Source of the DNA: Nageia nagi
Taxonomy: Eukaryota > Plantae > Pinophyta
NCBI GenBank assembly: GCA_050084985.1
Contig: JBITNC010000001.1
Location: 171,554,001 to 171,618,000 of the forward strand
Direction: 5' to 3'
Length of the DNA: 64,000 bases
Shown here in pieces: positions 4,242 to 53,700 of this stretch. Position 1 is the first letter of the stretch; every line of letters starts with the position of its first letter. The position numbers were made by a program, and so were the translations under genes. Under the pieces are notes generated by a model. That model did not search any database. It was not told the origin of the DNA and saw only the letters and a list, made by a program, of their open reading frames with translations.

Positions 4242-4467
4242 TGTTGCAAACTAGATAGGGATTTGAACAATAGGTATAGGACCGAGAGTTGTGCATATTA
4301 TGGAGAGTAATTGAGAGGTAGTATCAATATGAGGCAATTGCCCCGAGGTAAAGGAATCAAACCCTTTCGACTAGGGAAGTATCATGCTCCCAATGGCTAA
4401 ACTCGCCAGATGTGATGTCCCCCTTGTATTATTGTAATTGATTTTGGAATCCAACAGATTCCCCTTT

Positions 4468-12498: not shown

Positions 12499-13072
12499 TG
12501 TTGCCATCATGAAAGAAACTAGGTACCTAGATTTCCCTCTCCAACAACTTGAAGATGCCATACTGAAGGACGTCCCCATGATTGATAGAATTGAAGGATT
12601 CCATAAACCTAGATTTCTTGCATTTTCTCCAACAAATCTAACTAAGAACAAATCATTCACACAAATAAGAACACACAATGTATAGTAGTTCTTCTAACTC
12701 TTGGGAGTACTTCCACTTTGAACCATCTCTTCTATTACTTCTCATAAGAGAACTCTCCTACAAATTTTCAAAAATTCTTCTACAAGAATTCTTCTACAAA
12801 GCTCTTACAAGAGCATTCCTATAACGCTACACAACTAGCATTTTCATGCTCCTACAAGTTACATAATGAAAAGGGTACCTCTTTATTTATAAGAAGAAAC
12901 TCACCCTTTAACCTTCTTTTTACCCAAGGGTAAAGTTAAAGATGTTTCTATATTTATTCATCTTTCTATATTATTCTCTTAATGTTTTAAGGTATCTTTA
13001 GATACTTTAAGCATTAAGTGAATTTACATTAAAGAGAAATATTACATTACAATTTCCAACACTCTCCCTTAA
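12499..13072 (-). mobile_element. 3' LTR (12499-13061) plus PPT of a truncated, probably Ty1/copia element
   Basis: Minus strand: TTAAGGGAGAG (PPT) directly followed by TGTTGGAAATTG, then TATAAATAAAGAGG, ending GGCAACA at 12499. Confidence 0.65.
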
Positions 13073-25999: not shown

Positions 26000-28223
26000 A
26001 AGTTAAAGTTGAAGTTGTTTTACATGCCATCTTAGTGTTTTATATTTTTTACCACCTTTTCATGGTGAATGAAACCATAATGTGGTACCAAATGAAACCA
26101 TGCATTTACTACCACACAGTTGCATTAACTTTATCTTTGGTGAGCTAGTTGCCTTTTAATATGGTTGTTACTCAAATAACAACTTTATTGTATGTTGAAG
26201 CTACTAGAGTGAACCATGGCACCAAGGAAACACCCATGGAAGTTTGTCTTGAAAGTTTATCACGAGGTAATTCTTCCTCTTTATCTGTTGTCATTCCTTT
26301 GAAGGAAATTAACTCTACATGCAATGGTTAGAGGATTGTACTCCGATATGATATTTCCCAAATCTTGAATGACTCCCTCATTTGCAATTGGATATAGATG
26401 ACCTAGCATCCTTATGGAATCAAAGTAAATAATATTCAAAACCTATCAAGGGATTTTTCCATTTTTCAGTTTATTGACCCAAAAAGTGTCAAGGTTATTC
26501 TTAGTTGAGGATCCTTGTATGTCTATAGTACTTTACTTATTTTTCAATATTGGTCCTAGGACCTTATTATCCCTAATGATATCTCCCTTAAAGTCCCAAT
26601 GTGGGTAGAGTTTCCAACACTTCCTTTACCCTTGTGGATCATCCCTTCAAAACTTAGTTGAGCTAATAAGAGCATATTTTTGCATGGAACATAATAATTT
26701 TTATGCAATTCTTCCCCACTATCACATCTACTTCAAATAGACCTCTTAAAGTATCTTAAGAAGCATATAGACTTGTAAGTGGATGACACCACCATCTAAC
26801 AAAGGTTGGTGTACATTAAATTATCAAACACTTACTACAAGTGTCAATTTGCAATCCATAAGATTAAGGATTATCCATTTATGGAGGGGAATTTCAAACC
26901 TTGAATCCTGGTAGTTCTATCTCCTGCTCCAATAACCCCTAAATATGCAAACAATGAAGGTCATGAAAAATGGACCATTATGACTAATAGTAAGAATAAG
27001 AATGAAAAATAACTTGTTCAAATGATAATGCAAAATAAAATGTCAACTTCCCCAACACCAAGGAGTTATCTCCTCTTGTTGTAATCCCTATGCTCTTAAC
27101 TCCTCGTATATATCCTATTATAGCCCCTTATGCAAACTTACCTTCACCTTTAATGCTTCCTTTATCTTTCAATGCTCTGGTTTTCCTAAGGTCAAAATAA
27201 ATCGATCTTAAGGAAATAGGCATACTTGTACATCATTGGCTATCCAACAATCTCATAGTCCATCTCATGATGGAGCTCTTGTACCTTTGGAGAAGCAACA
27301 TCAAATGGAATTCCTTTGATATAACCATGACCACTTTGTTTTCAATATGTTACAATCTCTTACATCCCTGGAAGACTTCAATGGGAATATGATCCTTGAT
27401 CATATACCATGATTTTTTATCATGTAATATATATGGATAAATGGACCTAGTCTGCAACTATATGATTTGAAGTGAAATTTATAATATCACTAACTAACAT
27501 GGAAATCTACACTTTCTTTGTCTCTAAGAAGTTCAAGTTTTTTACTTTACTTTGTAAAATACTTATATTTTGATATGGCTAAGTAACCACTTTATAACAC
27601 TAATCATACTCTTAATAAAAGAGGAAGCTATCACTTTCATGGAACCTTGAATGTATTCATATTTTAAACCAAGTAGTCTAGGTCCTTTTGTAAATTGAGG
27701 GGTAACCATTTAGAATTATCAACATATATGCCTCATATTATGCACCATATCAATGCACTCTTTAGCATTAGATTTCTTTCTCCTTATCGCATATAGTTTG
27801 GACTCTATGTGGTGGCCTTAAAATGATTAAAAGAGTATCTAATAAAATTGGTCATCTTCTAATATGTTGGAAGTGGATAAGTGAGAGGCATGGTATCTCA
27901 TACAAAATAAATAGGGGCTTTATGATCCTAATGCATGTTTTTCATTAAACAATTTATCCAACTCACTTTGGTTCAGATGTTCCAACTTTCAAATTGGACA
28001 TGATTGAATTTTGTAGCATTTGGACATAGCCATATTGATAGAATAATCCAACTTCTAATTCCATCAAGCATTGCCTTCTTTCCCTTTTTTGAAGCCATCC
28101 TTAACAACATGCTTTGTGATCATGATCCCATTATTTTTTTTCATTATGAATCATATAGCCCCTCATGGCCCTTCATCTCCCAATTTTACTTAAACACGTC
28201 CTCCATCATTTGACTATGATGTG
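26000..28223 (+). mobile_element. Decayed L1 LINE, 5' part (ORF1 and APE endonuclease remnants)
   Basis: ORF1-like KVPMWVEFPTLPLPLW (about 26590) and zinc-knuckle remnant YKCQFAIHKIKD (about 26835). Endonuclease remnant SHIDR...CDHDPI...FYLNTS (28028-28200). Confidence 0.7.
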
Positions 28224-31200
28224 TGTTACCACCCAATTTTTTATCAATAAAATTTTGCAACTTTTTCTTCAATTTAGGTATCTAGAAAAAGTTTTGTTGT
28301 TTATTTTAATTAAATAAAAAACTAAAAATTAAATAATTCAAAATTAAAAAATAAGATTTGTCAAGACCATAATCTTTTATCACAAAAATAGTTTAGACCT
28401 TTGGGTAGTATCTTTCACTTTAGAAGCAAGTGTATATTCTGAACATTAGAATGGAATTCGGTTGTTATGAAATCGTTGAATACCATCCTCTAAGTTTGAT
28501 CACAAGCATCTACCCTAAACACAAGTGGAACTCAATCCTACTCAACCGTTGAATGACGAGCATCAAAATCTCTCTTTCAAAGTAAAGTGCTCATTCCAGA
28601 TATTGAAAAGTGGAAGTTGGTTCTCATCATGACCTGAAAACCCAAATGATCTTACTTTTCGAAATCAAAGTTAATTAGGATGAATTTTAACTATCTTTTT
28701 ATTTCCTTTATCGCATCCTATTAGAAATCAACCTGGCAGCGACTAAACATTTTTTCTTGGTTACATCGGCTTAAGTTTCAACTTAGCACGATTGAATATT
28801 CTTCTTCAGTCAAATCTTCTAGACTCAAAACATGAAGTGATAAAGGCTTTTGCTTGGATGCATGTGCTTGATGGTCAATCCGAGGCCACTGGTCGTGAAG
28901 AATTTGATGTTAACTTGACTCATTTGAAGTCATTCGCTTGTTGCTCTTCTACCATCTGATCTATAGGGAAACATTAACTCGATCACTGCCATGTGTCCCT
29001 TCATGCCATTCCTACCTATAAATAGTTAGAACCGCCCTTCATTTTTCACTAAGTGCTTCATCCATCCCTTAGTCGGATCTCGTAGACTTCCTAGCTAGAG
29101 CGACTAAGTGATTGTTGTGTTTGCACCGAGTTGAGCTGTTAGCAAGAGCAATCGTCATTATTGTAGGGTGTTGAAAATTGATCTGCAGTGACTAAGAGAC
29201 TTTGTTATCACCTCCACTCCTTGTGACCTGCTTTGAGCTGACTAAGAGATCAAGATCCATGGGACTTAGTCGTATAAGATCTTCCTTTCCTTTGATAGAT
29301 TATCTTGCACATTCATTTGAAGTGACTAACTGAAATCGAACCTTACTTCGAAGCGAGTAAGTCATATATTTGTCGCATTAGGTTAGAATCCACCTTATAA
29401 CAACTAAGCATTGTATTTATCGCACCAGTTTTTCTTCTAACCCATAATGACCAAACACATTCAAAAACACTCTAACATTTAATGTTTGCATTGAATTGAA
29501 GTTCATCTCAAAAGCTACTTAAAGGTTTAGTTGTCGCATGATTTCAAGTTCATCTCAAAGCAACTAAGGCATATTGAAGTCACATCATATTGACATTCAG
29601 CTCGAAGCGATCATGCACTTCATTGGTCACATCATTTTAAACTTCATTTCAAAGGGACTTAGCCAAAATTTACTAGTTGCACCACCTATGTTTTTGACTT
29701 GATGCAATTAAAGGAAAATAAGTAATTTTGATAAAATTACACTTTTCATCTTATCTTGAAATGATGGTTAACTTAATTTTTTTTCTTTTTTCAAGATAAA
29801 CAATTAAAGAATGATATCGATGGCTATTCTCGGCTCACCAAGAGTAGTTTTGTTGAATTAAAGGAAGATGGCAAAACAAAGCAGAGGGCCTAATATTATA
29901 ATAGACTTGAGAACATCAAAGATCCTAAGTGAAATCATATTGATTTGATTTTTATGATTAGAGAGGCTGATGGGATTCTAGAAGAGGTAAAAGAGAAAGA
30001 TATCTTTCATTCTTTAGGACTTTTCATGGTTGTAGAGTCCTGGAAGTTGCATAACATACAAACTTTGAAAACCAAGTTGTAAATGATGCTGATGAAAATA
30101 TAATTGTAGACCTAACTAAAGAAGCCATTGAAAAAGCTATCAGTTGGTCCAACAGGGGTGTCATTTTCATCCAAAAAGATGTTGATCTAAAGTACGAAGA
30201 ATACAATAACAAACATAAGCCCAATGATTTCATCCGATATCTATTGAAACCAGAGCATCATGGTTTAGATCACCAAGCTATCATGAAAGTGTGGAGATGT
30301 TTATTTCATGATACCATAAACAAAGCCATCAGTTTATTATGTAGAATTTTGGGAAAATCTATTGGTATCCATTTTTAGGACTTATTTAGTTTTCTATACA
30401 AATTCAACAAAGGGGAGAGCATCTGGTGGAGTTAGGTTATCAGTGACGAGATGATCATTCAGCTAAAGGAAGTGAAGAAAAGGAGCTTCTTTTATATGTC
30501 ATATTTGGTCTTTTTGTTATTGAAGGGAAAGAATTGACCTCAAGCCCATGGAATCAAAAAGATCATTTTTAATTGGAAAGATACTATCTATATATCCTAC
30601 CCTAAATTTTATAAGACTGAGGAATGGAGTTATATCCAAATGAGGATTGATGAATGGGAATATGTGATTATCAAGGAGATGAAAAGGGCCTAGCATATCC
30701 TTAGGATTTCCATTGAAGCTTGTAACTTTTTGAAAAGGTTTGTTAATTTTCACCTTGAGGAATTTGATAACTCTTATATCAGATATTTTAGTGTAGATGT
30801 GGCTCCTCTCAAATTGCCATGTTATCTAAGTGATAGAATGGTGTTTATAGAATTTATCAAACAAGCTTTCTATTTTCATGAAAAATTTGCCAAGGAGAAG
30901 AAATAGGCACCAATAAAGATGCCTATCACCTTATCTTGGTATTTTTGCAATAATTGGTTGGAAGTGGAGAGCATCAAGTGTGAAATTGCATGATATAATT
31001 TTGAAAGACATGCATTGAAAATGAATTATGATCCAACTGAAGTGGTTGATAGGTTTTATTAGAAATTTCATACAAATTATAAACATCACTCCCTCAGCCA
31101 CCTGAAAAAATTCAGAAATGTGCGCTCAGAGGTAGAGATTCAAAGGATCCCAGAATAATTGGCATAGGAGGAGAGGGAGAAAAGGAAAGGAACATCAAGA

Positions 31201-34200
31201 GGTGAAAGCCATAGAAGCCGCCCACAATAGTCTGAAGCTCAACAAATAGTTGAGCAAGATTTTACTAAAGATCCAAATTTCAATTAGTTTGGCTCAATGT
31301 AAGGAGGTGATGTATTGAAAATAATAAATACATCCAAGATTGTACATGTAAAGTCTTATTTTGAGAGTGGAGAAAGTAGTCATATCGTTGCACCTAATGG
31401 GAACTCTTCTTCTAGTAGTAGTTCTTTAGAGAGTTTTGATGATGAAAATTGATCAAAATTAAGCAATAATGACATAAGGTCAAGGATTCATAGTGTTGAA
31501 AGGGAGTATGAATAATCTGATGATAGTGAAGGAAATGACGAAGAACAAGTTGGAGAAATATTCGAAGAATATTAAGACCCTTTCCCAACTACTGACACCC
31601 ACACTAAAGGAGAAGAGGAGTTTGTAATTATCATAGACTGCAAAGAAGAAGGAGAAATTAAGGAAAATGGACCTATTCCTCATGAGGGTTCTTCTAACTT
31701 GGATTTAATTGCTACTTATTCTTCCTCCATCCTAAAGGTGTCACATCAATAGGGAATGATTTCACATTTTCCAACACAATAGGCCATGAAGGGGTCTACA
31801 CAAACTATGAAATGCCTGACTAAAAGATCTAATGTAAAGAAAGTTTCTACTCCTCATAAAAGCTCTATTTCATAGAAATCTGCATCCAAACAGTCATATA
31901 GAGCACTCAAAGGGAATGACAATGATGATGATGATGATGATGATGAAGAGAATGAGAAAAGGAGGAAGAAGAGAAAACAAGATGAGCATGAAAAATAAAT
32001 TATCACAGTTGACGATAACACTACCCTTGATTAGCTTAGCTCAAAATATCTTTTGAATAATATAGATATTGATGCATATTTGAAGAGGCTTGAAGAAATC
32101 AATAGTGGAAACAAAGGGGAAGAAGAAACAGAGGCAATAGGAGGAAGCTGCCCCTATTACTTAGAAATTATTAATTATTGTAGAGTTTAGGAAGGAGACC
32201 CTATGAGTTAGCAAACTTTCAACCAATGTCAAAAAGCCCAAATATAAGAGGTAGATAAACATTAACACTATGGAGTATGATATTAAGCCTCTAGGTATTG
32301 AATCTAATGCATACATTGTTGATCAAGTTACCAAGAATTTGACAAAGTTAGCTCAAGAGAAAGAGTCAAAGGTTAATAAACTCAAGAGCGAGATGAAAAA
32401 AACCTCTAACGAGTTTAATGAAATGGGAGTTGATAAAGAAGAATTGAAATCTAAATATAAAAAAGGTTTTGAGTTCAAGAAGAGGATCAACAAGTTGATT
32501 AAGAAAGCAACCTAAGTATTTTCGAATGCCTATCATGATCTTGTTTATCTTGATAACATAAATTTTTTAGTTATATAGCGTTGAGGCTGACATTAGTAAA
32601 TATGCAAATTAATGGATGGTAGAAGTGGAAAACGTTGTAAGAATTGAGCATGAAGTTATCAATAATGAGAAATTGCTAAATTTTTACAAAGAATTTTTGT
32701 TCCTTTTTGATTGGTTGTCAAATGCAAAACTCAGATGCAAAGCATTCAAGGATAACTCTAATGAGGTTTATAAGGAAAATCAAGATATTATTGATTTGGT
32801 TGATATTTCAACCCTGAATGTATCAAGTTAATAGACAAGCAATAATGAAATCAAAGAAAGCTTGAGGGAACTCCTAAAGAAAAAGTGGAAATCAAAAGAT
32901 TCAGAGGAAATTCTTGGATTGTATGCATGTTCTCTCTTGGATCAACTAGGTTAAAATATCACATCAAAAGATTACAAATTGGGAAATAAGGTAGATGATA
33001 TGTCAATATCAGGGGTTATTGGAAGGATGTGATAAAGTTCATAATTTCTCAGGGTGAGATATCAAGGCAAAGGTCGTAGAGATGATAACTTTATTCCCCC
33101 CTCAATCATTAGCAAGTTGAAGAGTAGTTTATTATATTTGTTCTCGATAGCATTGTAAAAGGAATTAAGGGTGTTAGAAAATTTTTGTCCCCTTAATTTT
33201 CAGAGTTAGTCAAATTTTTGTATATTATTTTTCAAACTTAATCTCTTTTTGGGTTAGGTTTTTAGACTTAGCCAAATTTTGATGGTTCTAAAATTAGGGT
33301 TTTAAAAATTAGGATTTCCAAAGAAGTTAGGGTTTTGTTTTAAACCTAACTACTTTTGAGTACTATTTAAAGGTGAAGGAGCCTCATTTGTAACTCTCTC
33401 TCTGGCATTCTGAATATTGAAAGTTGCACTTTGAAGCTTCTATAATATAAGATAGTATTGTAATATAAGATGGTATCTTTTACAGCCTGCTTATGTATGT
33501 TTATTTCTTTGATACTTATTTGAGTAATTAGATGAATTTCAAGTCTACGTAATAATTAATTTCCTATACCTAGATAATTTTATCTTTTTATGAACTTAAA
33601 AAGCAATCAGCGTTTGAGTTCGTGAAAGAAATATGATGTATTATTCAAGCTACGTAGTATAATACCTCATCCAAGAAACTAAGTTTTTGTGAATAAGAAC
33701 TAAAAGAGACTAAGTACAAGATGATCTACTTTGAGTTTATCACTTCTTACTTATAACTTGATTAACTTGGGCAAGAATTCTTCAAATTGGTTAAAATGTT
33801 CAAGTGATTGTTTACTTTTCTGGAATTAGTGAAATGATCATTTAATTCAAGGTTAAGGAAAGTTGTGATAGAAATAAACTAAATCTTTGCACATTCAAAG
33901 GAAAAGATGAAAAATATATAAAAAAACCCACTTCATAAGTGAAAATATGCTTATGTGAAACATATTACTATCTTCCTCGTAACTTGGATAACTCAAGCAA
34001 GTCTAATGCAACCGAGTTACAAACATTAAGTAATTGCTTACTTTTCTAGAACTAGTGGGGCAAGTATTTAATCTAAGTATGGGAAATATTGTGAGAAAAA
34101 TAACATAAGCCTTGACATAATCTATTAGCACTAAACAAACACATCAAGGACCATCTTGTTAAAAAGAGAATCTTAGATTTCTACTATCCCCTTTTTCTTC

Positions 34201-34222
34201 TAATAAGAAAAAGTGGTTAACA
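28224..34222 (+). repeat. 5' LTR (5,999 bp)
   Basis: TG...CA termini; colinear with 41867-47564; followed by the PBS. Confidence 0.93.
29796..33158 (+). pseudogene. Accessory ORF inside the 5' LTR (about 1,100 codons, decayed)
   Basis: Colinear with 43141-46514 and homologous to 10901-12031 (W.S.VIS, SYLVFLLL.GK, YPKF, DEWEY.I.KE.KG, LP.Y..DR..F.EF, NYDP). Acidic/low-complexity middle and K/E-rich coiled-coil-like end. Confidence 0.8.
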
Positions 34223-34226
34223 TTAT

Positions 34227-34245
34227 TGGCGAGTCTGTTGGGGAT
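34227..34245 (+). promoter_or_regulatory. Primer-binding site, tRNA-Arg-like
   Basis: TGGCGAGTCTGTTGGGGAT 4 nt after the LTR; close to the Ogre/Tat TGGCGACTC(C/T)(A/G)CTGGGGA type. Confidence 0.75.
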
Positions 34246-34403
34246 GCAAGTCAAGAATCTACCCTTTGGCTAGTTGAGGTTAGCTTGGTGAGTTTGAACT
34301 AATTTAGTCACTTGGGAATTGTTATAAGTGCAAAAAAACATCAAAATTTACTCTTTTTTGAAAAGAGAACTTAAAAAAAGGATAAAAATAATTTTGAAAG
34401 AAT

Positions 34404-35232
34404 ATGGTGAATCATCATCCTAACTCTGCAAGATAACATGCTTTATATAACCAACAAGTTAGAAGGATTCAAGAAGAAATAAGAAATAAAATGCTTTTCT
34501 TCAATGAAATGATTTTCAATACTTTGGCTCAAAGTGAATTTGAGGTATTAACAAGAGCAAAAGAAATATACCTCCCTTATGCACTTCAAGTTGAGAATAA
34601 GAAAATTAGGAGAACTTTCCTTGAAAGAACCTTTTGGAGTGAAACAAATTTAGAAGTATCGAGATCAATTGAATCTTTGGGCACATTTGATAAAGGAAAG
34701 ATAGATATTTTAGGATACCATATATAATCAGATGATGAATCGAATAGGGAAGATCTGGTAGAGTTCAAGACCAACTTCTTTTTACTAATTGAGACAAGCC
34801 TAGTACAATTATCTTCATAATCTTTAGTTGCTATAGGTATTAATAATCTTTGTTTAATTATTAGAGAATCCATTTTAATCCCCCAAATTTTTGAAATCTT
34901 ATCAAAGGAATTGTTGATTAGAAGTTAAGAGAGAACTCTAACATTAGAGAATAAATGAAGTAACCAAATTATTAGAAGAGACGCATATCTTTTGCAAGTC
35001 AAGTAAGAAATTAAGACATAGCTTGTTGATAACCAAGAGAAGAATAAAAGTATTTTTATTGAACAAATCTTGGGAATTAGTGGATATCTAATAGGCAATA
35101 GTGATTTGAAAGAAGAATTAGAAAATTTAAAGTCAAAATGTATTCTTGACATTGAAATTCAACCTTTCACATTCAATTCAATAATTTCTTTAAGAAGAAG
35201 TCAAAGTTTGACAATAGTCATCAATTTTTGAT
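34404..35232 (+). pseudogene. Extra ORF upstream of gag (uncharacterised)
   Basis: ATG at 34404 is in frame with NKMLFFNEMIFNTLAQSEF...IRRTFLERTFWSETNLEVS. Homologous frame on the minus strand at about 50800-51400. Confidence 0.6.
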
Positions 35233-36750
35233 TTGTCCAAACTAACAAGCCCTTCCAAAAGAACAATTCAATGCTCAGGATTAGTTGAAACAAGTGCTTG
35301 GAATCTTGGCCCTACAGAACTAGAAAGATATTTACGAAGGATTCAAAGGGAATGGACAAATACAGACCCAAATACCACACTTATTGAAACAAGAATCCCT
35401 ACTCCTATAAGAAGTATATCACTTGAAGAATATGAGATCAATATTATAGGATCTAAACTAGATATAGAAGCTTTTGAAATGGTTGAAAGAAATAAAAGAC
35501 TTTCACTACCATGGGAAAATAACTCTGTACCTTTGATTTTACAAGGGGAAAAACACAATCTCCTTAAAGAAACTAGAGATCTTCCTCATTTTTCAGAAGA
35601 TCAATCTAGTAATACAATAGAAGAACATCTTGAAAACTTAAACACTTTTTGTGAAGTAAATGGAGTTGAATATGAATATGTTGCAATACGTATGCTTGTT
35701 AAAACTCTCATAGATTCAACACTACAATAGTATAATTTCCTCCCTATTGGATCAATTTCAAGTTGGGATAATCTATCAGATGCATTTCTATTAAGATTCA
35801 AAAGTCGAGTGTTAGGAACAAAATTAATCAATGAAACTTCACACATGAAGAAAAGAGATAGAGAGTTTGTTCCACGACTCACAAATCATTTCAATAAATT
35901 TTTTTAGAGAATTCCAATAAATTTAGCCTACCACATTCCAGAATGCAATGGATGAAGCAATCGGACATGAAGAATTTATGATTGCATTAGAAAAAATTAA
36001 GAGAAATAAAACTTTTGAATCAAGAAAATGGAACATTGAATCATCTAGTAAATAAGATAAAAGCAAAGCTCTTTAACAAAAATAGGTTGAAAATGAATTA
36101 TTGAGGAAATTAGCTAATATGACTATTCAACAAACTCAAAATACACAACATGGATTCAGACCTCAATAGAACTTCAAAAAATTTCCAAATCAGAATAGAG
36201 GGGATTTCAAGGATGAGAAGAAGACATTACTTGTTCCTATGGATAGACCATAATGTTCAAACCCAAACCCCTATTGTAATCTCTATAAGTATGAACATGA
36301 TCCTAACATTTGTATTACTATTAATATATTATAGGAGATGCTTGCAGAAAATGAAGTACTATTCGGAAATAGTGACCTAATCGAACAAGGAGAATCTAAT
36401 TTACTCTTGGAAGAAAATAATGAAGATACTATAAAGAACTTATTTCAAAATAGTATTCAACATTCCAAATGTTATACCATGATGACAAGATCCCAGGCCA
36501 ATCTTTAAGCCCAACCATAGGATAAAATCAAAAGAAATCTAGACTGAGGAAAATAAGAATGATTCGCTTAGTTTAAAATATAGTGTAGTCAAAGCTCTAT
36601 CCAAAAACATGACCAATATTTCCATCTTGAAAATCTTGCAGAGCGACCCTCAGGATATGAAAGAACTCTCATACGTAATTAAACCTTCCAAAACATGTGT
36701 AAATCTGATCATGGGAAAGGTCACCATTGAAGAACATGTTTATGTAGCTG
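35233..36750 (+). pseudogene. gag (decayed)
   Basis: LPHFSEDQSSNTIEEHL...VEYEYVAIRMLVKTL...LPIGSISSWDNLSDAFL. Zn-knuckle-like PYCNLYKYEHDPNIC near 36270. Confidence 0.8.
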
Positions 36751-36758
36751 AATAGAAA

Positions 36759-37110
36759 TTGGCCAGATTGTCCTCATTCTATATGTCTCTTTGGGTAAAC
36801 AAAAAAAAGTTGTGTAATTGCATATTAGATTCAGGAGCTATAGATAACATTATGCCATTGAAAGTTTCTCAGATTTTGAAATTGAATTTTACTGAATGTA
36901 AAGATTCCTTTTTTCAAATGGATTCTTCTAATGTAAAGATAGTCGATAAAGTCAAAGATATCATCATCAATCTATCATAATTTCCATCCAAGATTTTATG
37001 AGTATCCTAGTAGTCGATATGCCTATTGCTTATGGAATGCTATTGGGAAGATAGTTTGCAATGATTATGGGTGGTATGATTTCTTTAGACTGGACTTTGC
37101 ATAGATCCTG
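36759..37110 (+). pseudogene. Aspartic protease domain
   Basis: LCNCILDSGAIDNIMPL...YGMLLGR. Confidence 0.88.
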
Positions 37111-37317
37111 ATTGAGGATACATTGCAAATCCTTAAACCCAAAGCAAAACAAATATGGATGGTTGTTACTAAAGAAAATAGGATTGAAGGAAACACTCAA
37201 GAAAATCCCTTTCATGAGGTTAACCTACAAGAGAACCAATCAATGGAATTGTTTCAAGACATGGAAATTAGTTCATATCAAGCTATCGAGGAGGAACTCA
37301 AGAGGTAGATAAATATC

Positions 37318-37720
37318 ATGAGCTTAAATGATGTTTGGAAAATGTATTTCGATGATAGTAAATGTAGAGAAGGGAATAAAGCAGGTGTCATTTTTATCTC
37401 TCCTAATGGGGCAAAGAAAGTTTTTTCAATAAGATTGAGTTTTCACTACACCAATAATATTGCTGAATATGAAGCCTTATATCAGGGTTTGAACATAGCA
37501 AAGAAATAATATAGATTCAAAATTTGGTATGTTTCAGGAATGCAAAGTTAATTGTCAAGCAAGTTAAAAAATAGTTTCAGACTAAAAGCCCCAAGTTGCG
37601 ATCATATAGATACCTTATATGGGACATGATTGGAACCTTTGATTCTTTCAATATAACTACTATCCCTTGAAATCAAAATTCTCAAGTAGATTCTTTAGCT
37701 ATATCAACTTTTATGATAAA
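37318..37720 (+). pseudogene. Archaeal-type RNase H (aRH) located between PR and RT
   Basis: WKMYFDDS...AGVIFISPNG...RLSFHYTNNIAEYEALYQGL...NSQVDSLA. Confidence 0.88.
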
Positions 37721-38079
37721 GCTAAACCCTTCTCTTGGATTGGGGCACTATCATATCAAATTACTTTTCAAACCAGCCATACTAGAAAATATTAAGCATT
37801 GGCAAGTTTTTGATTTTGATAAGCAACTTTTACAATTTTTGCCATGCACAAAAGAATATTCATTAGGCTTTGTGGAATCAGATAAAATCTTATAGTTGGA
37901 TGAAAATAGAATACCCTAGTAATTATTGGGTTAGAAAACCTCTATGATCAAAATGATCATTTTAGTTGTAAAAACATGGTCAAAGAGATATCTAAATCAA
38001 CAACTTTTAATTTGAATCCAAATAGAACACCAAAAGAAATCCTAATTGGCACTAGATGCACCTTAAATGAAAGAGAGGA

Positions 38080-39430
38080 ATTGATTGAAACATTCAAAAG
38101 GTTTAAGAAATTTTTTTCTTGGAACTATTATGATCTTAAAGGGTTCAAAAAATATGTTTTCTAGCATATTATTGCATTGAAGGATAATTCTAAACCTTTC
38201 AAATAAAAAATTCAATGTTTTAATCCAAAAATCGAAGGAATGATTAAAAAGGAAGTTGAAAAAATGTTGTCATTAGATATTATTTATCCAATTAGGAATT
38301 CCTATTGGATAGCCAACATTATTCCCGTTCAAAAGAAAAATGGAGACATTAGAATATGTATTGACTTTTAGACTCTCAACTTGGCATCCATTAAAGATAA
38401 CTATCAATTACATATGATGGACCACATTTTGTAGACTATCAATGGCTCATAAATATTTTCTCTACTAGAAAATTATTCTGGTTATAATCAAATTTGGGTT
38501 GCAAAGGAAGATCGTTTCAAAATAACATTCACCAATCCTTGGGGTACTTTTGCATACAAAAGGATTCCATTTTGATTGACCAATGCAGGAGCTACTGTTC
38601 AAAGAGTTTTGGACTTTGCTTTTAAAGATGTGATCAACAAGATTATTGTTATATACCTGGATGATATGAAAATTTTCTCGAAGTGAAGAGAAGACCATGT
38701 GAAACATGTTATTCAGGTACTAGAAGTATGTAAAGAATTTGGGATATCATTAAACCTGAAGAAATCTATTTTCAAGGTGACTGAGGGGAAACTCTTAGGC
38801 ACATCGTCTCTAGAGATGGAACTCATATTGATTAGAAGAGGTAATTACTATCAAGAAAATCCCTTTCCCAATAAGAAGAAGCTTTACAATCTTTTTTCAA
38901 AAAGGTTAGTTTCTTAAGAAGATTTATCTTAGATTTTGCAGAAATTGTATTTCCTCTAAATAAGATGTTAACACAAAATGTTGAAATCAAGTGGTCTAAT
39001 GAAGGGAAACTAGCTATTGAAAACATCAAATAAGCTCTTACAAGCACTCCTACTATGGTGCAACCTGATTTCAGTAATATTTTAAGATGTATACTCACAC
39101 ATTGGATCATACTATTTGTTTAATATTAACATAAGTAAATGATACAAATGAAGAACATCCGATTGCTTTCATGAGCCATTCTCTAAAAAGTGCAAAAGAG
39201 AAGTAAACCTTCCTAGAAAAACAAGTGTTCACTGTAGTCAAGGTAGTCATGAATTTCAAAGTTTATATCTTTGGGCTATAGATTACTATATTTTTACTAG
39301 ATCCAATTGTAAAAACTATTTTGACATAGAAATAATTAGGCATTCTCAAAGGATATTGGATAGCTAAAATTTAGGAATTCAAATTAGTTTTCAAGCCAGT
39401 TAAGTTGGTCAGAGGAAAAGGAATATGCAA
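38080..39430 (+). pseudogene. Reverse transcriptase and gypsy RNase H
   Basis: VQKKNGDIRICIDF, FSGYNQI-like, PF.LTNAGATVQR, IYLDD (38651-38665), EHPIAFMS, KPVKLVRGKG. Confidence 0.9.
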
Positions 39431-39649
39431 ACTTATTACAAATATTTCTCCCATAGAATATGATAAATAGGTACAAGCATAATTATCACATATAGCAATG
39501 GAAACTAGTTCGATGATATATCAGTGTGCCTAAAGACTGGGCATCCACCAACACATCTATCATTCAATGCAAAAGGAGCTTTGAAAATGAAATCTTGGAA
39601 GTATTGTTTGAATGATAATGTTCTTTTTCAAAAATAATTTGATAGTATT

Positions 39650-40620
39650 TTGTTAAGATGTGTTGAAAATAACCAAATTCTAAAAATCCTTAAAGATTTT
39701 CATAATGGAGTATGTGGTGGAAATTTTGCTCCTACCAAAACTACATATAAAATAATTAGGGTTGGATACTATTGGAATACTATGTTTAGAGACTATAATA
39801 AATATTTTCATTATTGTATAGAGTGTCAAAAATTTGCTGGCAGAGAGAAGTTTAGAATTGCCCCTTTGAAACCAATTATAGCTAATGCCCAATTTGCAAA
39901 ATGGGGTATTGATTTTGTAGGCCCAATCAAACCTTTGTTCAGTAAAGTACATATGTTTATCCTTATAGCTACTAATTATTTCACTAAGTGGGTAGAAGCT
40001 ATACCTACTTTTTGAGCAACCTCTGCAATCGTTATCAACTTCCTTATGAAAAATATGTATTCTAGATTTGGTATTCCCATTAGAATTGTCACTGATAATG
40101 CTATATGCTTCAATTGTATTGAAATGACCAATCATTGTCTTGAATATAATGTCCAAATCTAACTAGTATAAGATTATTACCCACAAGGAAATGGTCTCGC
40201 TAAATCATCAAACAAGAATTTGAGATGAATCATTTCTAGAATCCTTTGCCTTAATTGAGAAATTGGCATAATAAACTAGATTTTTCCCTTTGGGTAGATT
40301 GATTCACACCAAAAGAAGCAACTAAGTGCTCTTTGTTCTATATGGTTTATAGTAGAGAATAAGTTCTTTCGATCCAACTAGAGATTCCTAGCTTGAAATT
40401 AATGGTAAATATCAAATAAGATGAATCGGTAATAAAATCTAGTTGTGGAATAGTTGTCATGAAGACAAGGGTAAGCATAAGAAGTTCAACTCTTTATGGT
40501 TGGGACCTTATAAGATTTTTTAAAAAAATCTCAAATCATACTTGTACCATTTGTGATGGTGACTTGTATGTTTTCTCAATTACTTATAATATCATACATC
40601 TAAAAAAATTCTTTTCACAA
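39650..40620 (+). pseudogene. Integrase with GPY/F motif
   Basis: FHNGVCGG...GYYW...CIECQKF; WGIDFVGP; [10 protein letters not shown]; RFGIPIRIVTDN; YYPQGNGLA; KFNSLWLGPYKI. Confidence 0.9.
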
Positions 40621-41866
40621 GGCATAAATGAATGAAGGATCGAGGATGTTATCCTTAAAAAGTTAGACTAGATCATTAGTCCAAACGTTCCTTGTACATC
40701 ATGTATATATATTAAAACAAAAAATGTGTATTTTCAATGATTAAATTTTGATCAAGTTAATATTTTAAGATTTATTTATCCTTTCAAGCTTTTATACTAG
40801 TGTTCTTGCATAATTTTTCAAACAAGAGAGGTTTTTATGAGATAGTTTTCTTGGAAGTTAGTCTATTTACTTTTTGACCATAAAAGAACTTAAGGTTTCT
40901 TCTAAGTTGTTAATCTTTAAAATTCCTAAGACTCAATTTTATAAGATTGGACCCTAAAAAGAGATTGATGATATAAGAGAATTGAATAAGTCTTATGAGT
41001 AATACTAAGATAATAATGATTTTTCATTGATCTCCTTCTCAATCTAGCTATGAGAATTTGAAATGCTGGAATGGATGATGAAAGTTTTATTTCTTTCCAA
41101 ATTTATTTTGTTGATTATGGTAAGACTAATAATATAAAATATAAAAAAAGGAATAATTACAAATAAAAAAAAGGAAAAACGAAGAAAAAGAATGATGAAA
41201 ATTATTCTTAGCACTCAAAGAAACTCCATCGGGGCTATAAACGCTTGTTTATAGTGTGAGCAATTATTTGAAATCAGAGGTATCCCTACCAAGGCTATAA
41301 ATGCCTTCTAGAAGTAGAGGAAATGCCCTATATAAACAAGTACCAAGGATGTATGTAGGTAAATCGTACATAGGGATGAAGTACCATAAAAGAAAGGTTG
41401 GATTGATATAAAAAGTTACATTCCGAGTTCAATATTAGCAATGATGATTGCATAGTTTATTATCATGATCTTTGGAGATTATTTTTATAATAGTGTTCCC
41501 AGATAATTTATTTGATTAAATTATACTTTCTATTTCTTTTTAAGGATTATCCAATCAATTATTTATCAAGAGGATTAGGAAGATTGCAATGAAGGAGATT
41601 CTTGAGAAACTTTTTAAGTTGATGGATTATAGGATAATTTTTTAAGTTCCCCACATCTCATAAAAAAATTCCATTATTCTATAGCTATTCAAGAGAATGA
41701 CCAAAAATTACTAGGAAGGATTTCTTATTTCCAAAGTCTAAATATTTTCTTCTTCTAATCATGATCACCATGTTTTTTTTTCTTTGTGTAAATAATATGG
41801 CTTTGGTAACTAGAGATGATAGGATATTTTGTCTCACCAAGGCAAGACATCCCCAAATAGAGCCAA

Positions 41867-44800
41867 TGTTACCACCCAATGTTTGATTAATAAATGTTTT
41901 CTACTTTTTTCTCAATTTAGGTATCTAGGAAAAGTTTTATTATTTGTTTTAATTAAAAAAACATCTAAAAATTAAATAATCAAAAATCCAAAAATAATGA
42001 CTTATCAATACCACATGTTTTTATCACAAAATAGTTTGGACCATTAGGTAGTGTCTTTCACTATAGAGGCAAGTGCATATTATAAACATTAGTATGGAAG
42101 TTGATTTTTATGAAACTATTGAATGCCATCATCTAAGTTTGATTATAAGCACCTACCCTAGCCACGAGTGGAACTCGGTACTACTCAACCATTGAATGAT
42201 GAACATTGAAATCTCTCTTTCAAAGCTAAGTGCTCATTCTAGACACTGAAAAGTGTAAGTCGGTTCTCATCATGAACTAGAAACCAAAATGATCTTAGTT
42301 TTCAAAATTAGAGCTAATAATGATGAATTTTGATTATCTTTTTGTTTCCTTTTTTGCATCTACTTAGAAATCAACCTGGTAGATACTAGGCACTTTTCCA
42401 TCCCTTAGTTGAAGCTTGTAAACTTCCTAGCTAGAGCGACTAAGTGATAATGGTGTTTGCATAGAGTTGACCTATTAGCAAGAGTGACTATCATTGTTGT
42501 AGGATGTTGAATATTGATATGTAGCAACTAAGAGACTCCATTATCATCTCCACTCCTTATGACCTACATCCAAACAAGAGATCAAGGTCCATGGGACTTA
42601 GTCAGATCAAACCTTCCTTTCCTTTGTTGCATTATCTTGCACATTCATTTAAAGTGACTAACTAAAATTGAAACTTAATTTAAAGTAACTAAGTAATACA
42701 TTTATCACATTTGGTTAGAACCCACCTTACAATGACTAAGCATTGTATTTTTCATACCAATTTTTCTTCTGACCATAGTAACCAAACACATTCTAAAAAC
42801 TCTAACATTTGGTTGTCGCACTGAATTGAAGTGCATCTCAAAGTGACTTAAATGTTTAGTTTTTGCATGATTTTGAGTTCATCTCAAAGTGACTAATTTA
42901 TATTAAAGTTGCATCATATTGATAATCAATTGTAAGTGACCATGCACTTCATTTGTCACATCATTTTAAACTTCATTTCAAAGGACTTAGCCAAATTTTA
43001 CTAGTCGCACCCACATATGTTTTTAACTTGATGCGACTAAAGGAAAATGAGTAATTTTGAGAAAATATTTTTTTGATAAAATTACACTTTTCATCTTATC
43101 TCAAAATGATGGTTAACTTAATTTTCATCTATTTTTCAAGGTGAGCAAGTCAAAGAAATACACCAATGGTTATTGCCGACTCACCAAGAGTAGTTTAATT
43201 GAATTGAACAAAGATGGGAAAATAAAGCAAAGGGCTCGATATTATGATAGAATTGAGAACATCAAAGATATTAAGTGGAATCATACTGATTTAGTTTTTA
43301 TAATCAAAGAGGCTGATGGGATTTTAGAAGAGGTCAAAGAGAAAGATATCCTCCATTCTTCAAGACTTTTCAAGGATGCAGTTATTCATTTTCTATGACT
43401 TTTCAAGAATTAGTCCTAGAAGTTGCAAAACATACAAAATTTGAAAACAAAGTTGTAAATGATGTTGATGTAAACATAATTGTAGACCTTACCAAAGAAG
43501 GCATTGAAGAAGCTATGGGTTGGTCCAATAGGGGTGTCATTTTCATCCAAAATGATGTTAATCAAAGAATGAAGAATACAATAACAAACATAGGCCCAAT
43601 GATTTCATACGATCTCTATTGAAACCAGAGCATCATGGTTTAGCTTACCAAGCTATCATGATAGTGCAGAGATGTTTATTTTATGAAACAACAAATAAAG
43701 CCATTAGTTTCTTATGTAGAATTTTGGTTAAATCTATTGATATCTGGTTTGATAAGGACTTGTTTAGTTTCCTATACAAATTCAATAAAAGGGAGAGCAT
43801 CTAGTGGAGTAAGGTTATCATTAATGAGATGATCAACCAGTTAAAGGAAGTGAGGATAACAAGGAGATTCTTTTATTTTTTCATATTTGGTATTTTTATT
43901 ACTGAAGGGTAAGAATCAACCTCATACCCATGGCATCAAAAAGGTTATCTTTAATCAGATGGCTACTATCTATATGGCCTACTCCAAATTTCATAAGGTT
44001 GAAGAATGGAGTTATATCCAAATGAGGATTGATGAATGGTAATATGCGATTATTAAGGAGATGAAAATGACCTAACATGTCCCTATGATTTCCATCGAAG
44101 CTTATGAATTGTTGAAAAGGTTTATTGATTTTTACCTTGAGTAATTTGATAAATATTATATCAAAGTTTTTGGTGTAGATATGGCTCCTCTGAAATTACC
44201 ACATTACCTGAGTGATAGAATGGTTTTTCTATAATTTATCAAACAAGCTTCCTATTTTCATGAAAATTTTGCCAAGGAGAAGAAATAGGCAACAATCAAG
44301 ATGTCTATCACCCTATCTTGGTATTGTTGCAATAATTGGTTGGAAGCGAAGATCATTAAGTGTGAAATTAAAAGATATAGTTTTGAAAGACTATTGAAAA
44401 TGAATTATGATCCAACTAGAGTGGTTGATAGGTTTTATTAGAAATTTTATACAAATTATAAACATCACTCCCTCGACCACCTAGAGAAATTTTGAAATGT
44501 GCGCTCAGAGCTAGAGACTCAAAGGATCTCAAAATAATTGGTACAGGAGGAGGGGAGAAAATGAAAGGAACATCAAGAGGTAAAAGCCATAAAAGCCCCC
44601 CATAATAGTCTCAATAAACATTTAAGCATGATTTTACTAAATATCTAAATTTCAATCCATTCGGCTAAATGCAAGGAGTTAATGTCTTGAAAATAATAAA
44701 TACATCCAAGATTGTACACATAAAGTCTCATTTTGAGAGTGGAAAAAGTAGTCATGTTGTTGCACCTGGTGAGAACTCTTATTCTAGTAGTAGTTATTTG

Positions 44801-47564
44801 GAGAGTTTTGATAATGACCACTGATCAAAATCAAGCAAAAATGATACAAGGTTAAGGAGTCATAGTTTTGAAAGGGAGGAGAAACAATCTGATAAAGATG
44901 AAGGAAATGAAGAAGAATAGGTTGAAGAAATATCCGAAGAATATCAAGACCTTTATTGACACCCACAATGAAGGAGAAGAGGAGTTTGTAAATATCATAG
45001 AATTCAAAGAAGAAGGAGAAATCAAGGAAAATGCACCTATTCCTCATGAGGGTTCATCTAGCTTGGATTTAATTGCTACTTATTCTTTCTCCACCTTAGA
45101 GGTGCCAAATCAAGAAGGAATGATTTCAGATATTCCAACACAAAAGGCCATGAAGGGGTCTACAAAAACTATGGATTGATTGATTAAAAGGTTTGAGGCA
45201 AAGAAAGATTCCATTCCTCATAAAAGATCTATTTCATAGAAATCTTCATCGAAATAGTCATCTAGAGTAGTTGGAGGGAATGACGGTTGTGGTGATGATG
45301 ATGATGAAGAAAATGAGAAAATAAGGAAGAAGAGAAAACAAGATGAACATGAAAAATAAATTATCATAGTTTATGATAACACTACCCTTGATTAGCTTAA
45401 CTCAAAAAATATTTTTAAGAATATAGATATTTATGCCTATTTGAAGAGGCTTGAAGAAATTAACAACGAAAGCAAAGGGGAAGAAGAAATAGAGGACACA
45501 TATGAGGAAGTTACCCTAATTTCTCAAGAATTACCAATTGTTGTAGAGTTTAGAAAGGAGACCCTATGCATTAGAAAACTTTCAACCAATGTTAGAAAGG
45601 CCAAATATAAGAGGTAGATAACCATGGAGTATGACATTGGGCCTCTAGGTATTGAATCCAATGCATACATCATTGATCATGGTACCAAGAATTTGACAAA
45701 GTTAGCTCAAGATAAAGAGTCAGAGGTTAATAAAATCAAGATCAAGATGAAGAAAAAATTTAATGATATTGGAAAAATGGGAGTTAATAAAGAAGAATTG
45801 AAATCTAGATATAAAAGAGGTTGTGAGTTCGAGAAGAGAATCAATAAGTTGATAGAGAAAGCAACCCGAGTTTTCCCAAATGCCTATCATGACCTTGTTT
45901 ATCTTGATAACATGAATTTTTTAGTTATATGGTGTTGAAGATGACATAAAAAAATATGCATATTAGTGGATGTAAGAAGTGTAAAATGTTGCAAGAATTG
46001 AGCATGAAGTTATCAATGATGAGAAATTGCTAATTTTTTATAAAGAATTTTCATTTCTTTTTGATTGGTTGTCAAATGCAAAACTCATATGCAAATCATT
46101 CAATGATAAATTCAATGAGGTTTATAAATAAAATCAACATATTATTAATTTGGTTGATTTTTCAACCTTGAATGAATCAAGTTAATGGAGAAGCGATAAT
46201 GAAGTCAAAGAAAGCTTGAGGGAACTCCTAGAGAAAAAGTTGAAATTAGAAGATTCAGAGGAAGTTTTTAGATCGTATGAGCATTATCTCTCTTGGATTT
46301 CCCATGTTAAAATAACACATCAAAAGATTACAAATTGGGAAATAGAGCAGATGATATGTCAATATCAGGGGTTATTGTAAGGATGCGATAGAGTTTGTAA
46401 TTTCTTAAGGAGAGATATCAAGGCAAAGGTTGTAGAGATGATAGCTTTATTTCCCCCTCAATCATCAATAAGTTGAAGATTAGTTTATTATTTTTTTTCC
46501 CAATAGCATTGTAAAAGTAATTAAGAGTGTTAGAAAAATTTTTTCCCCTTAATTTCCAAATATAGTTAAAGTTTTGTGTCTTATTTTCTAGACTTAGTTT
46601 CTTTTTGGGTTGGCTAGTTTTCAGACTTAGCCAAATTTTGATGGTTCTAAAATTAAGGTTTTAAAAATTAGGGTTTCTAAAGAAGTTATGGTTTTGTTTT
46701 AAACCTAAGTACTTTTTAGTAGCACTTAAAGGTGAAGGAGCCTCATTTGCAACTCTCTCTCTGGCACTCTAAATTCTAAAAATTGCACTCTGAAGCTTCT
46801 ATAATATAAGATAGTATCTTTTGCATCTTGTATATGTATGCTTGTTTTTTTATACTTATTTGAGGGATGATATGAATTTAAAGTATATGCAATAATTAAT
46901 TTCTTATACCTAGATAATGTTATCTTTTTACAAACTTAAAAAGCAATTAACATTTGAGTTAATGAAAGAAATATGATGTATTATTCAAGCTACATAGTAT
47001 AATACCTCATTAAAGAAACTAAGTTTTTCATCAATAAGAAGTAAAAGAGACTAAGTGCAAGATGATCTACTTTGAGTTTTTCACTTCTTACTTATAACTT
47101 GATTAACTTGGGCAAGAATTCTTCAGCTTGGTTAAAATGGTTAAGTGATTGTTTACTTTTCTAGAATTAGTGGAATGATCATTTAAGTCAAGGGTAAGAA
47201 AAATTGTGATGGAAATAAACTAAGTCTTAGCACATTAAGAGGAAAAGGTGAAAAAAAGTTAAAAAGAAATTCATTTCATAAGTGAAAAGATACTTATGTC
47301 AAACATATTACTATCTTCCTCATAACTTGGATAACTCGAGCAAGTCTAAGGCAATTGAGTTACAAACATTAAGTAATTGCTTACTTTTCTGGAACTAGTG
47401 GGAAAAGTATTAATCTAAGCATAGGAAAGATTGTGAGAAAAACAACATAAGCCTTGAAAAAATATATTAGCACTAAGAAAACATAATGAGGACCACCTCA
47501 TTAAAAGGAGGATCTTAGATCCCTACTGTCCCCTTTTTCTTCAAACAAGAAAAAGTGGTTAACA
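41867..47564 (+). repeat. 3' LTR (5,698 bp)
   Basis: TG...CA termini; preceded by degenerate PPT AAATAGAGCCAA; lacks about 300 bp present in the 5' LTR. Confidence 0.93.
43141..46514 (+). pseudogene. Accessory ORF inside the 3' LTR (about 1,100 codons, decayed)
   Basis: ORF-track pieces SKSKKYTNGYCRL...DIKWNHTDL, FQELVLEVAKH...IEEAMGWSNRG, MEYDIGPLGIESNAY... Confidence 0.8.
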
Positions 47565-47569
47565 ATGTG

Positions 47570-50744: not shown

Positions 50745-53700
50745 CGCTAGATCAAGTCACTACAAGATTGGTGGTCTTGCACCACTTCAACCCTTCCATG
50801 ATTATAGATAGTAGGTATAGTGCTAATACAATGTCATGATTTCTATTTTGCTCCTCAAAAGATAAATTTCTTTATATGATTATGATTTCACATTCTTTGT
50901 TCACAATTTCAACAATATTTTTAATTATTGTAGAAGAGATTGATTTACAAATTATAGCATAAATTTAATTGTTAACTCCAATCAACATTAATTTGGGTAA
51001 TAACTTATCTAGATTTCTTTCAAAAGGTAATAGGAAACTGACAATGCAATCAACAATATCTTCCCTCTTAGATTCTCCTTCATATTTGGTATGGTATTCA
51101 CTTGTTATTTCAAGCACTTATTCTTCAAAAATTCCTTGAGGTATAAATAATATCGACACTTCAAAATTTGCTTCACTCTTGAATAACCTCTTATGAAATA
51201 GTCTCTTAATACTTTGATTAATAAGTTGTTCAGAAGGATATAGGTGTCTTTCTTGAAGTCTTATTAAATTTTTAGTCTAACTTATTGATAATATGTTAAG
51301 AATTTATTGGTTGAAAAAGATAATTTTGTTTTTAAATTTTGAATAGATTTTATCAACTATGAGAGCTCTTTCAATAGGGTGAGATCTTGGTAATTCCATG
51401 AAAAATCATCTCACCTTTCATTCCTTTTCTAAATATCTTTTCCAAAAAGAGTTAATTTTGAAGGTTTTTATTTGCACTTTTAAAAAATTTCCTGAGTGAC
51501 TAACAAGTATAGTCATCAACCCAAATTCACTTGTAAAAAATAGTAGCTTTCCCAACAAAGTCACCATTTTTTTAACCACTTTTTCTTATATAAGAAAAAG
51601 GGTAAAGTGATTAAACAATCCTCCTTTTTAACAAGGTGTTCCTCAAATAATATCAATATTCTTCTTCAACTAGATAATAAAAAATGATTCATTTATAAAA
51701 ATTCAACTAAAAACTATCCTTTTCCACTTTATAAATGGTTAGAAAAAGAAGTTTAATTTAACCTAGCTTCAAAGCTTACCAAGTCAAATAATAAAAGTAA
51801 TACCAGATAGATTAAAATGGCAATGATAGTTACCTTTTATCAATATATAATTTCAAATAAATATTGATTAATTAGTATTAATCTTCATCAACACTTATAA
51901 ACTTTGTTGCAATGCTTGTAAAAATCTTAAGAGGAAAAACAATCACATGCAATGCCAATTTACTAATTGAATTGTAAATAAAACGTACATGCAATAGTAA
52001 TATCAAAATAATGACAACATGAAAGCAATCAAATTCTTCTTTTATTAATTCTTAGTCTTCAAAAATACATCAGCTTCTTACATAGCAAGAGAGTGTTAAA
52101 AAAAATATTTTCCTTCTTTTATAATAATTGGGGAGTAGGTGAAACAACTTGACTCTTTGCCTACCCTATTTCAATTTCAAAAATATCTCCTTAATTTTTG
52201 GAGGTCCTCTTCAACTTCCTTCTAACCTAACTCAAATGAAAACTGACTAACTCTAATGGTCAACTAACTATATATTATATAAAAAAAATTATTTTCTCAA
52301 AATACAAATTCCTTTCGCTATCCAAGGTGTACCACATGTGAGTCAACATATTTCAAAGGAAAATCAATCCTCCTTTGCATGCATCCAAACCAACTGAATT
52401 CTAAAACCTCATCTAAGGGGTACAACATGAGTCATGAAAGCTTCATCAAATTAGCAAGATTATTCTACAAAATCTTTTCTTGCAAATTTTTATCAAAGCC
52501 ACACTATTGAAGAATTGCATGTTTCTAGTTTCTAGTACGATATTTAATTTTTCATGTATAGCTCCAAATTTTAATACCATTGAACTACATTTCACTTCAG
52601 TTATTGGAAACCATCCATAAAATAAAAATAATTTATTACAAATACTGATTTATTGTACTATGTTATTTGGAAATTTTTTCCTTCCATCTTGAACAAACTT
52701 TACATTTGCTTCCTAGATCTCATTTTTTGTCACTATCTTCTTATTCATGTCCTTTATCTCTTTTCTCATCACAAAAAACTAAGTCAAAAATCATAAGCAA
52801 TATCAAAAGTGGAAAGTAATTGGGAAATAAGAGCTTGAGCCTTTTAGAAGAATTATTATCCTTTTTAATAGTTTCACTTTATGATGTTATCATCTACATT
52901 TAAGGCTTTCCAACCTTTTCCCTACATTTGCTCTTACTTTAATTCTTTTTCCAATTCTTTGACCATTTTCTTATACCTTTTAATCAATTTTTGCATATTA
53001 TACATGGAAAATTTTCACATATAACCATTTATATATTCATTTATTCACTCAATGTCTACTTTATCTATATGAATTTTCAAATTTATTGTGTCCTTTGGTC
53101 ACTTTTGATTTCTATATATTTTTTTGGAGAAGATTATTACATCTTCTTTAATCCTTGGAAATCTTTAGAAGAGTTTTGGTGATCTTGAAGGTGTTAGTAT
53201 CTTTTCCTTATTCTTTTCATCTGCATCATCACCATCACTTTCACTCATATATTTTAGGCTTTGTAAATAGGCATTTAAGTCTTCCTTCTAACCAAGTTTC
53301 ATCATTGATTTTTTGAGCAGCATGTGATTGTGTTATAGGAATAATCTACTTCTTTGAAATTAGATCATGTTTAGTTTACTTTATTTTATTTATTATTTAT
53401 AAGATTTATTCATTGCTATTATCACCATCTCTTGACCCACCTACACCTAGGCTTTGATCCTTAATACCATTGGGAGTACTTGCATTGCTTTTGATATAAT
53501 TTGGCTTTTTTGGAAAAGATTTTGTTTTGATTATTTGGATCTTTGAATTGATGATGAATATATTCCTAAGTATGCATACGTATAATAACTTCATTTGGAT
53601 TAATTTATCCTTCCTCCTCTTCATCATATATATATTCAATGTTGATGTCTTTATTATCATCATCCTTAGTCCTCATTCTTAATGAGATACCCAGACTCGA

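Follow-up and report, generated by a model that had tools for sequence, protein, structure and literature searches.

A decayed TatII-order Ty3/gypsy retrotransposon of Nageia nagi with a broken accessory gene within both of its giant long terminal repeats

Results

A 64-kb stretch of the Nageia nagi genome (contig JBITNC010000001.1, positions 171,554,001 to 171,618,000; hereafter the window) contains a decayed 19.3-kb Ty3/gypsy retrotransposon in which the remnant of a gene of about 1,100 codons lies within both of its roughly 6-kb long terminal repeats (LTRs), an architecture in which we have high confidence. The fuller interpretation, in which we place slightly less than half our confidence, is that of an element with the domain order of TatII whose LTRs both carry a broken but conserved accessory gene, likely in U3, predicted to encode a DNA-binding anti-silencing protein resembling VANC and PMD proteins.

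Element Boundaries and Age

The following features delimit the element, including its target site duplication (TSD), primer binding site (PBS) and polypurine tract (PPT):

28219..28223 (+): TSD ATGTG, left copy (alignment)
28224..34222 (+): 5′ LTR (LTR1), 5,999 bp, TGTTA..TAACA (self-comparison, global alignment)
28754..29060 (strand not assigned): 307-bp piece in LTR1, absent from LTR2, with the upstream TATA-like box (alignment)
34187..34222 (+): inverted repeat at the LTR 3′ end (CTTTTTCTT..AAGAAAAAG), conserved and common to a second element in the window
34227..34244 (+): PBS-like sequence
41852..41866 (+): degenerate PPT position
41867..47564 (+): 3′ LTR (LTR2), 5,698 bp (self-comparison, global alignment)
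47565..47569 (+): TSD ATGTG, right copy (alignment)

Self-comparison of the window returns one long direct repeat, the LTR1/LTR2 pair, whose members each begin with TGTTA and finish with TAACA and are identical at 4,842 of 5,623 aligned bases (86.1%; Kimura two-parameter distance, K2P, 0.156). ATGTG borders both outer sides, the chance identity of two random 5-mers of the window being 0.0018, and the PBS-like TGGCGAG begins 5 nt past LTR1 with a homologous counterpart in the second element. These results bear out the TSD-bounded LTR pair described in the initial annotation, which had also relied on PBS and PPT positions; the PBS holds, but the PPT is weak, with 9 of 15 purines. Because each of the four ends falls at a TSD, PBS or PPT-like site, the repeats are genuine LTRs and not a segmental duplication. 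A short-LTR pair inside LTR1 was also considered and rejected, the 5′ and 3′ parts of LTR1 lacking collinear similarity (best 41 bp, E 0.018).

With a conifer substitution rate of 2.2e-9 per site per year, the K2P distance gives an insertion age of about 35 million years, a figure that deamination would raise and conversion would lower. CG and CHG words are depleted in the element (observed/expected 0.15–0.47), and no short gene-conversion tracts were detected between LTR1 and LTR2 (the longest run of identity was 45, with a permutation P of 0.62; a mild gradient had P 0.049). Intra-element conversion is described as frequent in Norway spruce (PMC5751070). The PBS-like site presumably resembles an Arg primer more closely than an Asp or Asn one. 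In the table of PMC6317226 the dominant PBS is that of tRNA-Asp or tRNA-Asn in TatII, and Arg dominates in TatIII.

The LTR-Borne Open Reading Frame and Its Decay

Two copies of the open reading frame (ORF) remnant were delimited by their coding path and homologs:

29798..33158 (+): LTR-borne ORF remnant, copy 1, about 1,100–1,120 codons, broken
43141..46514 (+): LTR-borne ORF remnant, copy 2, broken

The same frame of about 3.4 kb had been annotated in both LTRs (29796-33158 and 43141-46514) as a whole gene; the remnant is there, and alignment of the LTRs places it inside the TG..CA bounds of both, but each copy carries about 30 stops and 3–4 frame changes and is not whole. With the fewest-stop frame taken in all six segments, two short ones being uncertain, copies 1 and 2 have 34 and 30 in-frame stops per 1,085 aligned codons, compared to 217 and 220 per 2,164 in the other two frames, and stop-free stretches in the two LTRs reach 107 codons at most. 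A minimum-cost path gives 33 and 29 stops with 3 and 4 frame changes in LTR1 and LTR2, respectively (2.95 and 2.58 stops per 100 codons), alongside 2.4–2.7 stops per 100 codons and 5–7 frame changes in gag-pol and 4.3–5.7 stops per 100 codons in three non-coding controls. The equal decay of the LTR gene and gag-pol suggests that maintenance of the two ended at about the same time. No sign of selection on the two ORF copies after insertion was seen, their differences numbering 159, 137 and 148 at codon positions 1–3, as under neutral decay.

By simple proxies, the remnant protein comprises an ordered globular N-domain (to about position 31170), an acidic middle of low order with a basic KRRKKRK patch, and a charged, heptad-like C-terminal part. 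An env-like test over 6 pieces found no transmembrane-like stretch (best 19-residue hydropathy 1.18). Pfam was run on 21 pieces of the element read with X (E<=0.1), and the 10 pieces from the LTR matched no meaningful family.

Placement of the LTR Gene in U3

Motif scans and inspection of the LTRs yielded three relevant sites:

29016..29024 (+): TATA-like CTATAAATA, a promoter candidate for the LTR gene (motif scan)
33157..33176 (+): purine run followed by TGTTA just past the ORF end, a possible relic PPT and start of an older, shorter LTR
33364..33371 (+): TATA-like TATTTAAA, a promoter candidate for the genomic RNA (motif scan)

The initial annotation had placed the gene in U3 by the TATA-like sequence at 33364, which is present in LTR1 but has no match at the equivalent LTR2 position in the same scan; the second candidate, at 29016, had been overlooked. 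The latter, a good match to TATA, lies in the 307-bp piece missing from LTR2 and precedes the ORF by about 780 bp. A pyrimidine tract followed by AG, resembling a splice acceptor, precedes the ORF start in both LTRs, in a further copy at 10901 and in the second element. The simplest reading of these signals would be a separate spliced transcript within U3, with the genomic RNA beginning at about 33390; alternatively, the gene could have been expressed by splicing into the 3′ LTR. The purine run ends before the TGTTA at 33172, 14 bp past the ORF end, and contains 13 of 15 purines (12 of 15 in LTR2), a level reached at 2 of the 183 TGTTA sites in the window. This suggests that U3 may have grown through an upstream shift of plus-strand priming.

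A Second Element with the Same Layout

Downstream of the element, on the opposite strand, lies a relative that was annotated, like the other flanking elements, by similarity to the pieces of the first:

51570..56176 (-): second, diverged element with ORF homolog, homologous LTR 3′ end, PBS-like site and pre-gag frame

The ORF homolog extends from about 55409 with 28–33% amino acid identity in the N-domain; the LTR 3′ end follows at 51570, 3.8 kb after the ORF start, with a PBS-like site at 51566 and then a pre-gag frame (51357-50794; 37% identical). Over 242 bp, the end of LTR1, the PBS and the leader are matched at 71% identity (E 6e-18). The 5′ part of this LTR was apparently cut by a nested LTR (~56859-56177), and its start is not seen. 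Since a second element only about 30% identical repeats the order of ORF, LTR end and PBS, the location of the ORF within the LTR is probably a lineage trait. This layout is found at two of the four family loci in the window, the other two being uninformative.

The apparently nested unit (56859-56177, -) is LTR-like, about 680 bp long, bounded by TGTAGAC..GTCTACA and situated behind a purine tract. The start of another Tat-like element occurs at 2179-4414 (-), with the LTR end GGGGGACATCACA, a PBS-like TGGCGAG, and then gag- and protease-like matches. Its PBS near 4409 was considered as a further case of the layout and left uncounted, as the family fragment 2 kb upstream of it (6368-7168) is interrupted by other repeats near 6442.

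Internal Region and Placement in TatII

The internal region holds two decayed frames:

34380..35210 (+): decayed extra frame in the interval from the PBS to gag; the second element has a homolog (51357-50794)
35218..40450 (+): decayed gag-pol (Pfam)

In gag-pol, Pfam matches were obtained for gag (E 0.011), aRH (37363-37700), reverse transcriptase (RT; 38330-38767), RNase H (RH; 39126-39332) and integrase (INT; 39668-40177), giving the RT-RH-INT order of Ty3/gypsy elements. The aRH comprises RVT_3/RNase_H matches (E 3e-4 and 0.031) ahead of RVT_1 (E 1.7e-17). A DSG motif near 36800, without a Pfam match, is taken by us to be that of the protease (PR), which would place the aRH between protease and RT. 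That position of the aRH marks TatI of club-mosses and TatII of gymnosperms (PMC6317226). The element is best described as a decayed Ty3/gypsy whose apparent PR-aRH-RT-RH-INT order fits gymnosperm TatII. Neither strand of the 1.3-kb interval that separates integrase from the PPT scores as coding; therefore, the usual 3′ site of extra ORFs is empty and the extra gene lies beyond the PPT. The pre-gag extra frame has no Pfam match in either element, and is best fitted by the sense strand, the antisense also having few stops.

The Protein Family and Its Predicted Likeness to VANC

The N-terminal 366 residues of the LTR ORF have 62 homolog representatives at E<=0.001 (best 2e-49), all of at most 488 amino acids; one of the 20 looked up bears a name, a hypothetical protein of Taxus chinensis. 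Proteins of this family map to three further places in the window, 6368-7168 (-), 10904-12667 (+) and 54162-55086 (-), bringing the total to five copies, two of them in LTR1 and LTR2. The other copies share about 30% protein identity with the LTR copy and almost no DNA similarity, which points to long purifying selection. Among them, one stands out for its preservation:

10901..12667 (+): best-preserved family copy, 5 stops, no frame change, GCGACCA cluster upstream (homologs, minimum-cost path)

This copy has database relatives of 72–83% identity and was apparently cut near 12600 by another repeat. In a word-indexed protein search the LTR piece had no match, P0032 matched itself alone, and alignment A3 had 9 unnamed matches. 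No usable match for P0032 or P0053 was found in the ESM Atlas, a sequence profile returned three matches among PDB chains (best E 0.8), and a metagenome search with P0032 found no locus. A search with the LTR-end motif returned 99 viral loci without similarity to the element and one metagenome locus matching the motif alone.

Structural comparison gave VANC21 (PDB 9lnk) as the top match for two models, over 190–199 residues where every other match listed covers at most 98; identity is 7% and Z is low. Foldseek at E<=0.001 found nothing in the PDB or a viral library, VANC21 was absent from its candidates on a second look, and neither Pfam PMD (PF10536) nor VANC DUF1985 was matched in the 10 LTR pieces (E<=0.1) or in 8 family members (E<=10). 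Candidate binding sites may be present in the LTR's own DNA:

28739..29568 (strand not assigned): clustered short motifs of GACTAA(G) type, candidate binding sites within the LTR's 5′ non-coding part

GACTAA occurs here 7 times versus 0.95 expected, and ACTAAG 8 times versus 0.85, a modest excess, z being 6–10 in the LTR 5′ part and the best 6-mer of control regions reaching 4.4–7.0. GCGACCA has 10 sites in 8000-11999, with strong clustering upstream of the 10901 copy. Taken from predicted models, an anti-silencing type of function for the LTR ORF protein is possible, and we advance it tentatively.

Other Repeats in the Window

A 400-bp tandem duplication (92%) was found at 19034-19837, the same sequence being inverted at 6003-6454, and 57411-58096 holds tandem arrays whose periods are 192 and 153 bp. 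Two or three diverged copies of a repeat of about 370 bp, 67–71% identical, lie at 2-1142. At ~14300-17300 (-), translated pieces resemble exons of a host membrane-protein gene, presumably OSCA/ERD4-like.

Discussion

Proposed Mechanism and Alternatives

In the proposed mechanism, the LTR gene product would be a VANC/PMD-like protein, binding DNA and helping to protect the element from silencing. The target of its N-domain would have been the short motif whose copies cluster in the 5′ part of the LTR itself, and its C-terminal coiled coil would have oligomerised. The gene would have been expressed from its own TATA-type promoter with a 5′ intron inside U3, or by splicing from genomic RNA into the 3′ LTR, with genomic RNA started near 33390. 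With low confidence, we propose that a shift of plus-strand priming to an upstream PPT brought the gene into the LTR, so that a cassette at the env position became U3. The broader proposal that a gymnosperm Tat lineage packs a full anti-silencing module in U3, comprising a separately promoted gene of VANC/PMD fold and its own clustered target motifs, is speculative and rather doubtful.

Several observations complicate the proposed mechanism. The LTR gene is a pseudogene in both LTRs, and the copies have in common 11 stops (over 969 codons) and one frame change near 32570, where a rough estimate for parallel deamination expects 2.7 common stops (P 1e-4; 0.02 if doubled); the copy that was mobilised may already have carried damage, or homogenisation of the LTRs may have followed insertion. 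The placement in U3, which we consider probable, is drawn from TATA-like motifs with two candidates. The purine run and TGTTA at 33172 are also the best support for the gene being a passenger, in a family that normally has LTRs of about 1 kb (33172-34222) and the ORF internal at the env position, the long LTRs having arisen once by upstream PPT priming or template switching. The run leaves a TGTTA..TAACA unit with its own TATA-like box right past the ORF, and the shared lesions would reflect a gene already damaged. However, in the second element, only about 30% identical in the ORF, the ORF again precedes the 5′-LTR end and PBS and no such purine-run/TGTTA relic is evident on reading, and the TSD borders the long LTRs rather than the short unit, leaving this account improbable.

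An LTR-borne gene that was once functional in another accessory role, such as RNA export, a particle or integration helper or an env-like function, with the VANC likeness reflecting a common helical arrangement, is a more plausible alternative, though still an unlikely one given the same long VANC21 top match in two models, the lack of a transmembrane-like stretch and the known presence of PMD in Tat extra ORFs. The box at 29016 could instead be the genomic promoter, with the ORF in R/U5 as first cistron, outside U3; its good TATA match and the unmatched 33364 motif in LTR2 are consistent with this, but it would need about 5.2 kb of minus-strand strong-stop DNA and 1,100 codons before gag, from what retroelement replication implies, and three family members have a splice-acceptor-like site ahead of the ORF, suggestive of a separate transcript, so that we rate it marginally below the passenger account. 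That the 6-kb repeat is a later segmental duplication and no LTR pair, already thought unlikely in the initial annotation, is highly improbable: a weak PPT and stops common to both LTRs would agree with it, but the four repeat ends match TG/CA, TSD, PBS and PPT positions, with the low chance value of the TSD given above.

Relation to Known Systems

Literature searches aimed at the layout found no described plant element with a gene inside both LTRs, most subscription papers being outside their reach. Additional ORFs are treated as internal-region genes in a review (PMC7264820) and are apparently absent in lineages I and II in PMC4408406. TatII (non-chromovirus/OTA/Tat/TatII of PMC6317226; lineage II of PMC4408406) is alike in its aRH between protease and RT, 5-bp TSD and large size, whereas the element here is longer, at 19.3 kb where the listed maximum is 18,138 bp, and has 6-kb LTRs where ‘up to about 5 kb’ is given, and the TatII descriptions in the available sections of PMC6317226 place no extra ORF inside the LTR. 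The extra ORFs of TatIII/Ogre, with PMD and coiled coil, resemble the LTR ORF in combining a globular N-domain and a coiled-coil C-terminal part on a Tat element, but are described as internal, either 3′ antisense or 5′ sense; the ORF here has no Pfam PMD and lies in both LTRs. The Tekay elements Retrosat2, RIRE3 and RIRE8 of grasses also have LTRs over 3 kb and an extra sense ORF upstream of gag-pol, although theirs, ORF0, belongs to a different lineage and is described in the available part of PMC3485330 as one ORF outside the LTR pair.

VANC21 of VANDAL21, an Arabidopsis Mutator-like element, is the top structural match, an accessory gene, and associated with motif clusters in its element's own non-coding DNA; however, it belongs to a dicot DNA transposon, its motifs are reported as a tandem array whereas those here are dispersed, and the likeness here comes from models and sequence. 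The sag gene of mouse mammary tumour virus is shorter than the ORF of about 1,100 codons, and differs in belonging to an animal retrovirus and in encoding an unrelated protein with an unrelated role. It lies largely in U3, is doubled with the LTR and is kept in solo LTRs, as would probably apply to the ORF here, and it uses several promoters (PMC4667437).

Significance

The architecture is real and unusual. It varies on the known Tat extra ORFs, is represented only by old pseudogenes of a single window, and comes with a functional lead that is weak though coherent. Plant LTRs are usually treated as non-coding, and an LTR-borne gene of 1,100 codons would explain unusually long LTRs; annotation pipelines with LTR length caps would likely mis-call such elements. 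Among the 27 TatII elements in the table of PMC6317226, sense extra ORFs precede the polyprotein in 23% and follow it in 26%, and these near-equal counts may reflect LTR-borne ORFs gone unrecognised. By logic, an LTR gene would persist in every solo LTR; in conifers, solo LTRs are under-represented (PMC5751070). If the VANC/PMD likeness holds, it would give an unnamed and apparently abundant family a role in retrotransposon persistence in gymnosperms, and VANC-like systems would reach beyond the DNA transposons of dicots into retroelements. Should the U3 anti-silencing module prove true, each retrotransposition would copy the gene twice and every solo LTR would keep it, so that in genomes that are giant and heavily methylated a family-specific anti-silencing factor acting in trans could come from LTRs alone.

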